Assembly: GCA_000165345.1 (NCBI GenBank)
Contig: CM000436.1
Coordinates: 992,001-1,056,000, forward strand
DNA: 64,000 nt
Reading direction: 5' to 3'
Of this stretch, positions 40 to 54,240 are shown piece after piece (position 1 is the first letter of the stretch; the number at the start of each line of letters is the position of its first letter). The notes under the pieces were generated by a model, which worked only from the letters and a program-made list of their open reading frames with translations, did no database searches and was not told the origin of the DNA. The position numbers and the translations under genes are program-made.

Positions 40-5499
<5,460 letters not shown>

Positions 5500-37492: not shown

Positions 37493-39298
37493 CTATTGTA
37501 CTCCAGGATATCTTCTTATACCAGGAGGGGGAGGCGGAGGAGGAGGAGGTGGAGGCGCAGCTCCTCCCAAAGAAGCACCGAAAGGTGAACCAGTATTCAT
37601 GGGTGAAGATTGCACTGGATTATTTCCTCCCATCATTGGTGGAATAGAAGTTGGGGCAGAATAAGAAGATGATGACGGAGGTAGTGGTGGTGGTGGCAAT
37701 GTAGAGGAAACTGTTTTTGGAAACCCTGAACCAGAAATGGCATCTCCTCCTGACATATATGATGAGCTTGGTCTGGGAGCTTGTGGGAATAATCCTTGCT
37801 GAGGTTTTGGAGGAGGTGGACTTGTTACAAACTGTGAATTCAAAGCCTGTGAGGGAGGAGATATTGCTGGAGAAGAGGCAGTTACCAGAGGAGCTTTTGG
37901 CATTGGAGGAACCGTTGGCATTGGAGGAGCTGCTGGCATTGGAGGAGCTGCTGGCATTGGAGGAGCTGTTGGCATTGAAGGAGCTGCTGGCATTGGAGGA
38001 GCTGCTGGCATTGAAGGAGCTGCTGGCATTGGAGGAGCTGCTGGCATTGGAGCTGCTGGTATTGAAGGAGCTGCTGGCATTGAAGGAGCTGCTGGCATTG
38101 GATGGAGAGGGGACTTTTGAGAATGAAGACCTTGTTCTGATGGAGAAAAGGCCTGGCCAAAGTGGTGCTGGCCATTGGCAGACAATAGTGGAGGAGAAGA
38201 AGAGGAGCTCTCGCCCTTAAATTGAAATTGGCTTGGAGTCTGGGCTCCAATAGTTCCAGAATTTTGTCCCCCCTGTTCTTGGAGAGAGGGCTCCTGAGTC
38301 GGATGTTGATTATTCATTGCAGATTGGAAGTCATTACTGAGCTCAGAGCCAATATGTTGTTGTTGTTGCTGGTGTTGTTCGTTTCCTGATATATTGGTAA
38401 GAACCTCCCATTTACCTTCCGAGTTTTCTCTAAAGAGAGTAACAACATCCTCTCCACTAGAAGCAGCTAAAACTGTTCCTGTTACACTCCAAGATACCCT
38501 CCAGACTGGCTCATTAAAGTTAAGTACTTGGCTACTATGCCAACCTTGTCCATCAGCATCTTGAGTCCAAATGACTACAATTTTATCATCACCGCAAGAA
38601 GCAATAGTCTCAGCAAGAAGATCTACAGATGGTCTCCAAGCAACATCTCTTACCCACTCAGAGTGAGCAACATCCAAAGTCTGATTCATCTCAGAAAGCT
38701 CCTTTGTTTGTGGATCCTGCTTCCAGATACGTATCTGGTTATCACACCCTCCAGAAACAAGTCTTATAGTTTGGGAAGATGGATTTGACGGTGAATTACC
38801 TACAGAGTTAGTTGCTGGAGCCCAAGATACTGAATTTGCTCCATTTGGGTGTCCAAATACCTGCTTCTTTGTCCAGCTCCTAGTTTCTGGACTATATGAA
38901 CAAACAGCTACCGAACCATCCGAAATAGCACAGGCAAATTGAAGCCCAAAATCCCATGGACACCAACAAACACCATTAATTGAAGATAAAAAATCATCAC
39001 AAGAGTAAACAATTTCCCATCTTGATCTTTGAGTTTCTTTCCAAACTAGAACCTTCTTATCATATGAACAAGAAGCTAATACACTCCCAAATGTGGGGTG
39101 AGCCCAACAAACCTGCCAAACTGGCCCTTCGTGACCTCTTAATTCTGCCAAGAAAGTTGGCTGATCCGTAGAGACATCAAATATTCTTATTGTGTGATCT
39201 GATGATGCTGTTGCCAGTCTACGGCCATAATAATCTAATTGTGTGTCATGCACTGGACCAGTATGGCCAGTATCAAAAGTTCCAATAACTTCCGCCAT
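37493..39298 (-). CDS. SEC13: Sec13 (COPII / nuclear-pore WD40 protein) fused to a roughly 300-aa Gln/Pro-rich C-terminal extension. The extension contains about 10 tandem heptad PMPAAPS repeats and a terminal poly-Pro tract.
   Basis: The N-terminal 300 aa match Sec13: DTGHTGPVHDTQLDYYGRRLATASSDHTIRIFDV...LRGHEGPVWQVCWAHPTFGSVLASCSYDKKVLVWKE. The C-terminus has QHQQQQQH, then (PMPAAPS)n, then PPPPPPPPPPPPGIRRYPGVQ. ATG at 39298. Confidence 0.8.
   Translation of the reverse strand: MAEVIGTFDTGHTGPVHDTQLDYYGRRLATASSDHTIRIFDVSTDQPTFLAELRGHEGPVWQVCWAHPTFGSVLASCSYDKKVLVWKETQRSRWEIVYSCDDFLSSINGVCWCPWDFGLQFACAISDGSVAVCSYSPETRSWTKKQVFGHPNGANSVSWAPATNSVGNSPSNPSSQTIRLVSGGCDNQIRIWKQDPQTKELSEMNQTLDVAHSEWVRDVAWRPSVDLLAETIASCGDDKIVVIWTQDADGQGWHSSQVLNFNEPVWRVSWSVTGTVLAASSGEDVVTLFRENSEGKWEVLTNISGNEQHQQQQQHIGSELSNDFQSAMNNQHPTQEPSLQEQGGQNSGTIGAQTPSQFQFKGESSSSSPPLLSANGQHHFGQAFSPSEQGLHSQKSPLHPMPAAPSMPAAPSIPAAPMPAAPPMPAAPSMPAAPPMPAAPSMPTAPPMPAAPPMPAAPPMPTVPPMPKAPLVTASSPAISPPSQALNSQFVTSPPPPKPQQGLFPQAPRPSSSYMSGGDAISGSGFPKTVSSTLPPPPLPPSSSSYSAPTSIPPMMGGNNPVQSSPMNTGSPFGASLGGAAPPPPPPPPPPPGIRRYPGVQ
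37899..38102 (-). repeat. 21-bp tandem repeat (about 10 copies, GCTGCTGGCATTGGAGGAGCT and variants) encoding the PMPAAPS heptads of the Sec13 tail.
   Basis: Direct tandem periodicity of 21 bp. The ORF-track entries 37717..38220 (+) and 37882..38250 (-) are frame shadows of this repeat. Confidence 0.85.
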
Positions 39299-39941: not shown

Positions 39942-40634
39942 ATGGATTTGGGTGAACTGAATAAGGAGCAAATTGAGGATGCTCGTTCTGTTTTTCAAGC
40001 GTTTGATACTGATAGAAATGGCCTTGTTGATAAGAGAGAACTTAAAGCTGCATTAAGGGCTTTAGGCTTTGATGTTAAAAAGAAAGATATTGAATTAGTT
40101 TTTACTGGATGTTTTGGGAATAGTTATTTAAGTATGAGTTCTGGTTCTAATAATAAAGCATTAGGAAATTCTATCGGACCCTCTCATATGAATGAATACT
40201 TGCCAAACATTGGTGGAAAAGACTTTGAATTTGATAGAGGAGTCAACTTTGAAGAGTTTTGTCAAATTCTAGTTTATTTAATGACAAGTCAAAATCTATT
40301 TGGTGTTGGGGCATTCTACGGAACCTCTGATCCTTCTCATGAAGTCTCTCCAGAATATGTTAAAAGAGTTTTTTCTTTATTCGATATTAATAACACCGGA
40401 AAGGTTGGAATTAGAAGTTTAAGAACTCTTGTTTCACAAATTTCTAGAGAACCTCTTTCTTTAAGTATGAGAAATTCTATTGAAGCTACAGATACCACCA
40501 TATTTTCAGATGATGATCTTACACAAATGATCAAACATATTGATAGAGATGGTGATGGATTTCTTGATTTTGAAGATTTTTATAGAGTTTTCCAATATTG
40601 TCATTCCAGTACACAAAATGACATAAATTTCTAA
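39942..40634 (+). CDS. Centrin/caltractin-like EF-hand protein with a roughly 50-aa low-complexity insertion in the N-terminal lobe.
   Basis: EF-hand loops DTDRNGLVDKRELKAALRALGFD and DRDGDGFLDFEDFYRVF, with centrin-like spacing and a MIKHID..DGDG C-terminal hand. The insertion is GNSYLSMSSGSNNKALGNSIGPSHMNEY. Confidence 0.65.
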   Translation: MDLGELNKEQIEDARSVFQAFDTDRNGLVDKRELKAALRALGFDVKKKDIELVFTGCFGNSYLSMSSGSNNKALGNSIGPSHMNEYLPNIGGKDFEFDRGVNFEEFCQILVYLMTSQNLFGVGAFYGTSDPSHEVSPEYVKRVFSLFDINNTGKVGIRSLRTLVSQISREPLSLSMRNSIEATDTTIFSDDDLTQMIKHIDRDGDGFLDFEDFYRVFQYCHSSTQNDINF

Positions 40635-50894: not shown

Positions 50895-52993
50895 TTATTT
50901 TTTAAATGTTTGTGGTAGAAAGGGATCTCTAATTCCAGTATTAGGATTAGTAGGAGTAGGATTGATTCCGNTTCCAGAAGTTGTATGATGAGGATTAACT
51001 CTGACTCCTGAAATAATGGGAGTAGGGTTCATACTCATCATATCAGGAGTGGGTGTAGTAGGATGAGGATTGATTCTGATTCCTGAAACAATTGGAGGAG
51101 GATTAACTCCAGTTCTGGGAGTTTTGGAAGGACTAATTCTGATACCAGAAGCAAAAGACTGGGGATTGGTCCCAGTACCGGAAGTGGTTGTAGGATGAGG
51201 GTTGACTCCAATTTTGGGGATTGTGGAAGGACTAACTCTAACACCTGATGCATAGTTTTGAGGATTTGTTCCGAGTTCAGAAGTAGGTATAGTAGGAGGA
51301 TGAACTCCAATTCCAGGGGCTGTGGGCGGAGTGGCTCTGACACCTGAGGCTGTTGGTGGAGTGACTCTGACACCTAAGGCAAAGGACTGGGGATTGATTC
51401 CAGTGCCGGGAGTGGCCGTAGGGTGGTGACTCACTCTGACTCCAGGAATAGATGTGGGAGGGTTTATTCCAACGCTTGAAGTGACAATGGGAGGATTCGC
51501 TCCAGTTCTGGGAATGACTGTAGTTTGGGGGCTCGCTTTGACTCCAGGAGTGGGTTTGGGAAGAAGATTGATTCCAGTTTCAGAAGCGACTGTAGAAGGG
51601 TTTACTCCAATTCCAGGTGCGACTGTAGGAGAATTCACTCCAATTCTAGGGGAAATTTGAGGGTTCANTCCAACTCCAGAAACGACTTGAGGGTTCACTC
51701 CGATTCCAGTAGTAATTTGAGGGTTCACTCCGANTCCAGAAGCAATTTGAGGGTTTACTCCAGTTCCAGAAACAACTTGAGGGCTAATTCCAGCTCCAGG
51801 AGTAATTTGAGGGTTCACTCCGATTCCAGTAGTAATTTGAGGGTTAATTCCAACTCCAGGAGTAATTTGAGGGTTCACTCCAATTCCAGAAACTACTTGA
51901 GGGTTTACTCCAATTCCAGGAGCAATTTGAGGGTTAGTTCCAATTCCAGTAGTAATTTGAGGGTTCACTCCGATTCCAGAAGCAACTTGAGAGTTTACTC
52001 CAATTCTAGGGGAAATTTGAGGGTTTACTCCAGTTCCAGGTGCGACTGTAGGAGGATTCNNTCCAACTCCAGNANNNNNTTGAGGGTTTACNNNAACTCC
52101 NGAAACNACTTGAGGGNTNANTCCANCTCCAGNANNNANTTGAGNGTTNACTCCNANTCCAGTNNTAANTNNANNNNNAANNCCNACTCCTANNNNTAAT
52201 TNNNNGNTTCANTNNGAATTNCANTANTAANNNNAGNGTTCACTNNNANTCCAGNANCTTCTGCTAAAGATGAAGATGGATTATTTTTATTAGTATTTGG
52301 TTGTTTCTGAATATAATAAGGATGTGAAATAATATTTCTACTAGTTGTTGTAATATTTGAATTCATATTTGAACTTATCTGAGAAGAAGAAGATAATGAT
52401 GAATTTATTATACCTGTTGGAACATTAAGATTACTTGAAATCATGTTATTTTTAACTTGTATTTGATTACCAATCAAATTCTGTAAATAATTTTGTTGTA
52501 ATTGCTCTAATTGTGATTTATTAATTTGTGAATTAATTACCATAGAAGATACTCCTTCATTCATATTATTCATCATCATCAAATTAGAATGACAAATATT
52601 TGAATTATCAACTTGGATAAATTGTTTCTCAAGTCTTTTCGATTCTATTTCTCCTTGTTCCTGTTCCACTTCTTTTACTCCATTTGTTTGTGTTCCAGTT
52701 ATTCCAATTCCTTGATTATAAATAATTGAAAATCTCTTCACATGTTCTGTGAATAATTCTTGTATTAATTTAAAATCTCTCTCTATCAATTTTAAACTTG
52801 TAAATATTTCATCTCTTGGCTTATTTTTTAATTCCTTCAATTTCTCTTTTAATTGCATTAATGGTGTAATATTTGTATTTAAAGAAGATAAAAGTCCATT
52901 CTCATTTTTATGATAGTTAATATTATTATTATCACTCTTATTAATCGTCTTATTTAATGTATCTCTACGTACCTTTTCTTCCCTTCTAATCAT
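50895..52993 (-). CDS. Probable single gene encoding a coiled/Asn-rich N-terminal region followed by more than 25 tandem decapeptide repeats [G(V/I)NPQ(I/V)(T/V)(T/S)G(I/V)]. The repeat region (about 51590-52260) is riddled with ambiguous bases, so the frame is unverifiable.
   Basis: ORF 52190..52993 (ATG at 52993, MIRREEKVRRD...) runs into N-rich sequence. ORF 50895..51968 is opened by GTG inside the repeats and ends ...RDPFLPQTFKK*. Both are on the minus strand with no intervening stop outside the N-rich stretch. Confidence 0.45.
51590..52260 (-). repeat. 30-bp tandem coding repeat (GGAGTGAACCCTCAAATTACTACTGGAATC-type units) with many N calls.
   Basis: Direct 30-bp periodicity (ttgagggttcactccgattccagtagtaat...). 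Plus-strand ORFs 51454..51660 and 51525..52199 are shadows of it. Confidence 0.8.
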
Positions 52994-53337: not shown

Positions 53338-53410
53338 TATTAATTTATTTAGACAAGATAATAAATATAAATATTTAATAATAAATTTATACACGTATGT
53401 ATTATTATTA

Positions 53411-53530
53411 GTAATAGTAATAGCAATAGCAATAGCAATAGTAATAGCAATAGTAATACTAATATTAATACTAATACTACTACTAATAATAATAATAGTA
53501 ATAATAATAGTAATAATAATAAGTAATATT
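53411..53530. repeat. Non-coding hexanucleotide microsatellite (AATAGY)n degenerating into (AATAAT)n.
   Basis: gtaatagtaatagcaatagcaatagcaatagtaatagcaatagtaatactaat.... The ORF 53306..53548 is its translation artefact. Confidence 0.85.
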
Positions 53531-54240
53531 AATATAATCGTGATATAATTAATGATATCGTTATAATGATTTAAAAATTTTCAAGAATTAAATTTAAAAA
53601 ATGAAAAAAATAAAAATCTATATAAATTAAAATACGCTATATATAAGCAAACAATTGAAAGCATGCTTTGAGTCGAGATTTCTTTAAAATGACAAATAAA
53701 TCATTGTATTAATGATTTTTTTGTTCATAACAAGTTATTTCGTATTAAGTACTGCAATAAAAAATTATTAATAGTTGATTGGAAAAGATTATCTACTTTA
53801 TCAACATATTGTAGGTAGTCTTACCAGTTATTCTATGATTAATAAACGTGATCGTTGGTAACTTTTGATTTAATTGAGAATTTCTCATTTCCCTTATTGA
53901 CTAAAAAGTTACTTCTATTGCACGCTTACATTATACAAAATAAATTAAATGACTTATTATTATTATTATTATTATTACATTCAATTTATGATTCCAGAGA
54001 AAATCAGCATTCTATTTGTCACGTCTTTTGTTCAAATATTGTTTAGGTTTTAGTTATGCTATTACTTATTCAATATTATTTAATTCTTTCAAATACTTAT
54101 TGGCGTATACCCAAGAATGCTATACTAATTATTATACTTCAAGATTATATACTTCTTCCTTTAATTAGGAAGTAGAAAGAATTGCTTTCTAGTAATCTCT
54201 TTCTTGTTATCTTGAAACACATTTTCTTTTTTTCTCTTCT

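Follow-up and report, generated by a model that had tools for sequence, protein, structure and literature searches.

Sec13 of Cryptosporidium parvum: a six-bladed propeller followed by a long, proline-rich and predicted disordered tail with lineage-specific tandem repeats

Introduction

Elsewhere in eukaryotes, the β-propeller of Sec13 is a component of both the COPII outer coat (together with Sec31) and the Y-complex of the nuclear pore. Here, we describe the Sec13 gene of Cryptosporidium parvum, cgd8_4110, as found in a 64,000-nucleotide stretch of DNA (GenBank assembly GCA_000165345.1, contig CM000436.1, positions 992,001 to 1,056,000 of the forward strand; hereafter ‘the window’, from the first letter of which all coordinates are counted unless otherwise stated). 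In this gene the propeller is followed, in frame, by a proline-rich tail of 296 amino acids (aa), predicted to be disordered and most plausibly a flexible arm that adds to the contacts Sec31 makes within the COPII coat.

That apicomplexan Sec13 proteins carry a poly-proline extension has been described before (Kehrer et al. 2018, Sci Rep 8:11249, PMC6062611): it was documented for Plasmodium, Toxoplasma, Neospora, C. parvum and C. muris, with 73–115 prolines, and likened to SEC31, of which its authors found it ‘reminiscent’. In P. berghei the extension is essential and could not be deleted, and a divergent tail from P. falciparum was accepted in its place; the P. berghei protein was also found mostly away from the nucleus. 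Immunoprecipitation of PfSec13, as cited in the same paper, recovered Sec31, Sec23 and Sec24b. Apicomplexan Sec13 proteins range from 601 to 822 aa in a published table, with the exception of a 385-aa entry for Eimeria tenella (PMC6357402, Table S8).

Two further systems serve as points of comparison. The disordered region of Sec31 drives coat assembly by binding Sec23, through triple-proline (PPP) motifs, a Trp-Asn (WN) active fragment and charge; no similarity in sequence exists between orthologous regions, and an unrelated disordered, PPP-rich region of Las17 can take their place (Stancheva et al. 2020, PMC7594496). PfSec13 itself had earlier been proposed to be a fusion of Sec13 with Nup145C (Dahan-Pasternak et al. 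2013, J Cell Sci 126:3055; as cited in PMC5333908 and PMC6062611), and as given in these citing accounts it resembles the protein described here, both being apicomplexan Sec13s of about twice the usual size with extra C-terminal sequence.

Results

A complete Sec13 gene with an in-frame tail

On the minus strand of the window, a single open reading frame (ORF) runs from ATG to TAG over 601 codons (37493..39298), with no stop between propeller and tail and no N bases within the gene; the in-frame joining of Sec13 to a proline-rich sequence of about 300 aa, as put forward in a preliminary description of this DNA, is thus borne out. The gene is C. parvum Sec13: the ORF agrees in length (601 aa, 1806 nt), chromosome and exon count with cgd8_4110, which is recorded at positions 1,029,493–1,031,298 of chromosome 8 as a protein of 601 aa encoded by one exon with no intron (PMC6357402, Table S8). 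A full-text literature search on cgd8_4110 found no paper. Together with 3 kb on either side (7806 bp in all) the locus is 100% identical to CP029787.1 of assembly GCA_031892065.1, a 1.34-Mb chromosome record, and the closest database relatives of the protein all come from Cryptosporidium. The features of the gene are:

37493..39298, minus strand: complete single-exon Sec13 coding sequence, 601 aa, with its TAG stop at 37493..37495 (cgd8_4110)
38384..39298, minus strand: predicted Sec13 six-bladed WD40 β-propeller, aa 1–305 (phmmer, Pfam, AlphaFold2 (AF2), Foldseek)
38102..38383, minus strand: Gln-rich, polar, mildly acidic start of the tail, aa 306–399 (sequence and charge map)
37888..38107, minus strand: tandem repeat, 18 bp × 12.3, encoding MPAAP[S/P], aa ~398–470 (Tandem Repeats Finder, TRF)
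37565..37887, minus strand: Ser/Pro-rich non-repetitive segment, aa 471–578 (motif map, alignment, AF2)
37523..37555, minus strand: run of 11 prolines, aa 582–592 (TRF, period-3 AGG array)
37496..37534, minus strand: C-terminal motif PPPPGIRRYPGVQ, aa 589–601 (PPPPGIRRYPG invariant in six Cryptosporidium species)

Searched against all chains of the Protein Data Bank (PDB) with phmmer, residues 1–305 match Sec13 from Xenopus, human, Dictyostelium, Arabidopsis and yeast with E-values of 1e-89 to 1e-72, the Xenopus and human proteins at the top (E = 1e-89); chains of the paralogue Seh1 score more weakly (1e-26 to 1e-40), placing the protein nearer to Sec13. The propeller also matches the Pfam WD40 family (7.8e-24), and is 40–47% identical to the canonical Sec13 of yeast and human, on which its model superposes with a TM score of 0.92–0.95. 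An AF2 model, calculated from an alignment of 71 sequences from which the row for the C. canis ORF was left out, has a predicted local distance difference test (pLDDT) score of >90 over approximately residues 10–305, with 24 strands across residues 16–304. When this model was compared with known structures using Foldseek, the top 34 matches were all Sec13 chains, drawn from nuclear-pore, COPII and GATOR2/SEA structures, with a template-modelling (TM) score on the target of 0.89–0.95 for chains of Sec13 alone. Residues 1–305 thus form the open six-bladed β-propeller of Sec13. Whereas canonical Sec13 (yeast, human; ~300–320 aa) stops within a few residues of blade 6, the protein encoded in the window runs on for 296 more.

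Anatomy of the tail

The tail (aa 306–601) is 25% proline; some of the counts that follow refer to the 297-residue stretch after the NIS landmark (305–601), which holds 74 of the 87 prolines in the whole protein. Working from the propeller outwards, the order is that given in the preliminary description: a Gln-rich start, then the repeat, then poly-proline. The first segment (counted directly over the 95 residues 305–399) is 20% Gln and includes a QHQQQQQH run, encoded at 38355..38379 and seen by TRF as a period-3 array. Below this lies the tandem array (TRF score 333, 89% matches, 3% indels). The array itself had been recognised previously, as ten copies of PMPAAPS encoded by a 21-bp unit; the period is in fact 18 bp, the copy number 12.3 and the product a hexapeptide, MPAAP[S/P], in which the sixth codon alternates between TCA and CCA and one unit is only 5 residues long. 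Both the repeat and the ORF that contains it lie far beyond chance expectation.

The Ser/Pro-rich segment that follows contains two PPPP tracts (aa 494–497, 37808..37819; aa 535–538, 37685..37696), and aligns in part with its counterparts in the chipmunk genotype I and C. canis orthologues, for example over SPPSQxxNSQF and PPPPKPQQGLFPQ. The protein then closes with the run of 11 prolines and the C-terminal motif. Charged residues are few throughout, with 8 K/R and 8 D/E making up 16 of 297 residues, and a single basic pair (RR at 595–596).

In the AF2 model, pLDDT scores for the tail lie between 28 and 69 (37–57 in the Gln-rich start, aa 306–399, and 41–52 in the Ser/Pro-rich segment), and beyond a short helix at residues 307–313 there is no secondary structure. 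Searched on its own at E-values up to 10, the tail matched no Pfam family, and in the PDB sequence search it returned only two chance matches of low complexity. The C-terminal 296 residues are thus predicted to be intrinsically disordered.

Conservation of the tail in Cryptosporidium

An open frame is, taken alone, weak evidence for translation at this locus, because two further frames stay free of stops over the 18-bp repeat: 37717..38220 on the plus strand (167 aa) and 37882..38250 on the minus strand (122 aa), the latter reading QCQQLLQCQQLL. Stronger evidence comes from the related species, a comparison that had been proposed beforehand as a check on the tail. Full-length orthologues are found in chipmunk genotype I (616 aa), C. 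serpentis (601 aa), C. andersoni (673 aa) and C. muris (642 aa); with C. canis and the window itself, all six species carry the tail in the same frame through to the same C-terminus, PPPPGIRRYPG[V/I]Q. This conservation of frame is the decisive evidence for translation of the tail. A MAFFT alignment of the six proteins shows PPPPGIRRYPG to be the only invariant run of at least three residues in the tail besides poly-proline; the species span the deepest split sampled and represent two deep lineages only, such that the statistical weight of this conservation is moderate.

Rates of substitution are in agreement. By the Nei-Gojobori method, and with chipmunk genotype I as the reference, the propeller has a ratio of nonsynonymous to synonymous substitution rates (dN/dS) of 0.03 and the tail one of 0.29; compared with C. 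canis, the tail gives 0.23. The dN of the tail is ~19 times that of the propeller. These tail ratios (0.23–0.29) mark the tail as coding sequence under relaxed purifying selection.

The arrangement of genes around the locus (patatin / EF-hand / Sec13 / DEAH helicase) persists as far as C. muris. The EF-hand neighbour (39942..40634, plus strand) is a protein of 230 aa with a long internal insert, and adjoins Sec13 in all four of the Cryptosporidium loci examined; judged by eye only, its N-terminus has a centrin-like appearance, and the protein does not resemble a penta-EF-hand (ALG-2-like) one.

Two short Sec13 models in the genus bear on whether the tail belongs to the protein at all. In C. 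canis, the annotated protein OJ252_1225 has 339 aa; however, the locus (3001..4908 of the extracted region, JAPCXB010000045.1) holds an uninterrupted ORF of 635 aa that ends in GIRRYPGVQ, and a spurious antisense gene model of 214 aa, with no Pfam match, lies over the tail. On this evidence from the locus sequence the 339-aa protein is a faulty, truncated gene model, and we reject it as a sign that the tail is dispensable. For C. hominis, Kehrer et al. (2018, PMC6062611) noted a Sec13 model without the extension and mentioned a ‘CQQLL’ repeat in that context. ‘CQQLL’ is an alternative frame of the 18-bp array (that of ORF 37882..38250), which points to a frameshift in the C. hominis assembly. 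The idea that the long ORF is an artefact of annotation or assembly, with the true Sec13 ending before the repeat at ~300–340 aa, draws on these two models and on the additional frames open over the repeat; given the continuous C. canis ORF, the probable C. hominis frameshift, a gene free of N bases and a frame and C-terminus conserved in six species, we regard it as effectively refuted.

Repeat turnover and length variation

Four lineages carry tandem arrays at the same relative position in the tail, with a repeat unit that differs in each:

C. parvum (window): 18 bp × 12.3
Chipmunk genotype I: 21 bp × 5.9 and 15 bp × 4.3
C. canis: 72 bp × 4.6
C. muris: 24 bp × 9.2

Protein length also varies between species, with a range for the genus of 601–673 aa and differences even among the close relatives C. 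serpentis, C. muris and C. andersoni (601, 642 and 673 aa, respectively). Because arrays and protein lengths differ among lineages, this part of the tail is a coding minisatellite hot spot. The preliminary description had suggested that length might vary between isolates; variation is evident between species, each lineage with its own array, and three assemblies carry an identical protein, an agreement that carries little weight as N bases are dispersed through the present assembly in the manner of a consensus build. A flank of the repeat had no exact match in the metagenome contigs scanned, and the exact protein was absent from the cluster collection searched.

Base composition

The gene is richer in GC than its neighbours, as had been noted previously: its profile runs at 0.41–0.54 against 0.18–0.33 in the flanking DNA, and its overall value of 0.458 compares with 0.23–0.40 in all other long ORFs of the window but one. 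The excess lies in the first and second codon positions (GC1 = GC2 = 0.56), while the third (GC3 = 0.257; propeller 0.259, tail 0.256) falls within the 0.12–0.28 of neighbouring ORFs. A foreign origin was accordingly rejected as the source of the high GC content, which is instead attributable to amino-acid composition only.

A second ORF in the window, at 50895..51968 on the minus strand (357 aa), likewise combines a GC content of 0.454 with an ordinary GC3 of 0.25. It consists of decapeptide repeats, G[I/V]GVNPQ[I/V]xx, with a 30-bp array × 13.5 at 51634..52039; most of the 75 N bases in the window adjoin this array (52060..52257), leaving the assembly uncertain here and the true start of the ORF unclear.

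Other repeats in the window

Purine-rich tandem repeats are found at 1136..1471, with periods of 51–57 bp (alternatively 93 and 150 bp), within an ORF of 1819 aa on the plus strand (40..5499), and presumably give a Lys/Glu-rich product. A hexanucleotide microsatellite, (TAGTAA) × ~23, is located at 53409..53549 and is apparently non-coding.

Discussion

The normal form of apicomplexan Sec13

Apicomplexan Sec13 normally has a long proline-rich tail, and both the architecture and this gene are already on record. The view that the fusion would be an unusual architecture therefore has to be given up: the tail is common to Sec13 from Plasmodium, Toxoplasma/Neospora, Cardiosporidium and all Cryptosporidium. 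Long-tailed Sec13 proteins of Plasmodium-like, coccidian-like (30% Pro) and Cardiosporidium type came to light when 1.84 billion representatives were searched exhaustively with HMMER. The SEC13s treated by Kehrer et al. (2018; PBANKA_1445400, PF3D7_1230700, TGGT1_201700, cgd8_4110) have the same build, a propeller continued directly by several hundred disordered, proline-rich residues, and with 87 prolines the protein of the window falls inside their published 73–115; there is no difference in kind. What that paper does not contain is the 18-bp MPAAP[S/P] array and the unrelated arrays of other Cryptosporidium species, the genus-wide PPPPGIRRYPG[V/I]Q ending, and the recognition of the short C. 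canis model as an annotation error. The addition to the literature is small: an invariant C-terminal motif and lineage-specific turnover of repeats.

A proline-rich arm in the COPII coat

The explanation that we favour, with a confidence only somewhat better than even, is that Cryptosporidium Sec13 carries a disordered, multivalent proline-rich arm which would add to the contacts of Sec31 with Sec23/24; the mechanism is one that we infer. The tail is most likely a flexible, multivalent polyproline arm, whose PPP tracts would engage the inner coat through Sec23, at the site to which Sec31, Sec16 and TANGO1 bind with their own PPP motifs. Each Sec13/31 unit would thereby gain extra low-affinity contacts between outer and inner coat, and with them avidity during coat assembly. 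Function, on such a model, would be set by composition and by the valency of motifs, not by exact sequence; because composition and valency are what matter, a different repeat could be tolerated in each lineage, a picture that fits both the tail swap in P. berghei and the turnover of repeats in Cryptosporidium.

Compared with the disordered region of Sec31 (residues 749–1174 in yeast; PMC7594496), the tail is alike in being long, disordered and rich in proline, with tracts of at least three prolines; three such tracts are found, at aa 494, 535 and 582, as in the multiple-PPP disordered region of the Sec31 type. The two also belong to subunits of the same Sec13/31 outer-coat unit, are unconserved in sequence and tolerate a foreign swap. 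They differ in position, the tail standing at the extreme C-terminus of Sec13 and the Sec31 region between the helical domains of that protein, and in that the Sec13 tail is without a Trp-Asn fragment, positive clusters, PPAP/PAPP motifs or detectable similarity. The analogy with Sec31, drawn beforehand and shared by Kehrer et al., hence holds for the three PPP tracts and fails for Trp, positive clusters and sequence similarity.

Several of these points weigh against the proline-rich arm as we have set it out. There is no Trp in the tails of any of the six Cryptosporidium proteins, and so no WN active fragment; since it lacks this element, the tail should be unable to stimulate GTP hydrolysis. 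No PPAP or PAPP motif occurs in the tail, net charge per residue stays between −0.15 and +0.10 in 20-residue windows (that is, without positive clusters), similarity to Sec31 was undetectable in the Pfam and PDB sequence searches, and the array, the most conspicuous element of the tail, contains no PPP motif. By the features that Stancheva et al. set out, the tail would be a poor mimic of Sec31, and its contact with Sec23 is purely what we infer. C. parvum Sec31 (cgd4_260) is 1359 aa in length (PMC6357402, Table S8) and, judged by this length alone, long enough to have a disordered region of its own, for which reason we suppose that the tail probably supplements Sec31 and does not replace it. 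In addition, the invariant C-terminal motif is unexplained by a model of composition only, and whether it is the coat or the pore role of Sec13 that needs the tail was not decidable for Kehrer et al., the protein being also a component of the nuclear pore (PMC6062611).

Alternatives to the coat

This last point leads to the possibility that the tail serves Sec13 at the nuclear pore, either as a Nup145C-like seventh blade with helical domain or as a disordered linker or cohesive element of a reduced apicomplexan pore scaffold. Sec13 does belong to the pore in other eukaryotes, as the PDB matches reflect, the Sec13–Nup145C fusion has been proposed for PfSec13 in the accounts cited above, and few scaffold nucleoporins have been identified in Apicomplexa (PMC6062611), all of which lend the idea some appeal. 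We nevertheless think it unlikely. The Sec13–Nup145C fusion constructs of the PDB (3jro, 3jrp, 4ycz) align over query residues 9–303 only; the tail alone finds no Nup96/Nup145C family in Pfam or chain in the PDB at E-values up to 10; and the AF2 model has neither an inserted blade nor a helical domain, such that the propeller, which in Sec13 is completed by a blade from Sec31, Nup145C or Sec16, receives none from its own tail. A Nup145C-like fold in the tail was rejected on these three grounds, and in this the Cryptosporidium protein, having no Nup96/Nup145C similarity and no predicted β-blade or helical domain, is unlike the PfSec13 fusion as proposed in those accounts. FG-nucleoporin character was likewise rejected, as the tail has two Phe-Gly (FG) dipeptides in 297 residues rather than multiple FG repeats. 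In P. berghei, moreover, SEC13 is largely non-nuclear.

The invariant C-terminus suggests a different reading, in which PPPPGIRRYPG[V/I]Q is the functional core of the tail, a docking motif for a proline-recognition module such as a GYF domain, and the remainder is spacer. In its favour, the motif is the only invariant island in the six species that is not poly-proline, and PPPPGI (aa 589–594) fits the consensus of Smy2-class GYF domains (PPG and then any hydrophobic residue except Trp; PMC10187677). Yeast Smy2 acts in COPII vesicle formation, its GYF domain being needed for suppression of sec24-20, with the partner unidentified (PMC2239301), and human Sec31A has a similar PPPPGF site that binds ALG-2 (PMC4346919). 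The type-2 motif of ALG-2, [P/hydrophobic]-P-x-[P/hydrophobic]-G-[F/W]-large residue, however demands Phe or Trp after the Gly, and changing the Phe to Ala abolishes binding of Sec31A (PMC4346919); with Ile in this position the Cryptosporidium sequence does not qualify, and was rejected as an ALG-2 site. The correspondence with the GYF consensus is a pattern match, the conservation comes from the two deep lineages mentioned above, and PPPPGIRRYPG does not occur in the Plasmodium-like, coccidian-like and Cardiosporidium tails compared, so that it leaves the phylum-wide tail unexplained. That the motif is the core of the tail is improbable. We give a similarly low probability to a related proposal, in which the motif may be a docking site particular to Cryptosporidium, such as a GYF-type PPG-hydrophobic ligand, through which the COPII coat or the pore would gain an adaptor, with the minisatellite upstream setting the reach or valency of the arm.

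Finally, the tail might be a neutral, low-complexity expansion, prone to slippage, with no specific role, which an essential protein can bear at its end. Repeat periods and units particular to each lineage (18; 21 and 15; 72; 24 bp), a protein length of 601–673 aa across the genus, the ~19-fold higher dN and the want of any fold or family match are what such an expansion would be expected to look like. Its dN/dS is nonetheless far under 1, the frame is held in all six Cryptosporidium species and across Apicomplexa, the C-terminus is invariant and P. berghei did not tolerate removal of the extension; we therefore judge neutrality to be very unlikely, and retain the proline-rich arm of the COPII coat as the best explanation.

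Implications

The apicomplexan Sec13 extension matters in that it is essential in P. berghei, with its role in coat or pore at issue, a question to which the window adds no new testability. For Cryptosporidium, the corrected repeat, an 18-bp array encoding a hexapeptide, is a candidate marker of length, and the short Sec13 models of C. canis and, apparently, C. hominis are best treated as errors of annotation or frameshift. With only eight tryptic sites (its 8 Lys/Arg), the tail would be under-sampled in standard proteomics, and its absence there is no argument against translation. The 11-residue motif, invariant throughout the genus, offers a direct target for mutation; should it prove to be a docking site, which we hold to be a slim prospect, then Sec13, besides Sec31, would carry regulated contacts with the inner coat or with adaptors in Cryptosporidium.

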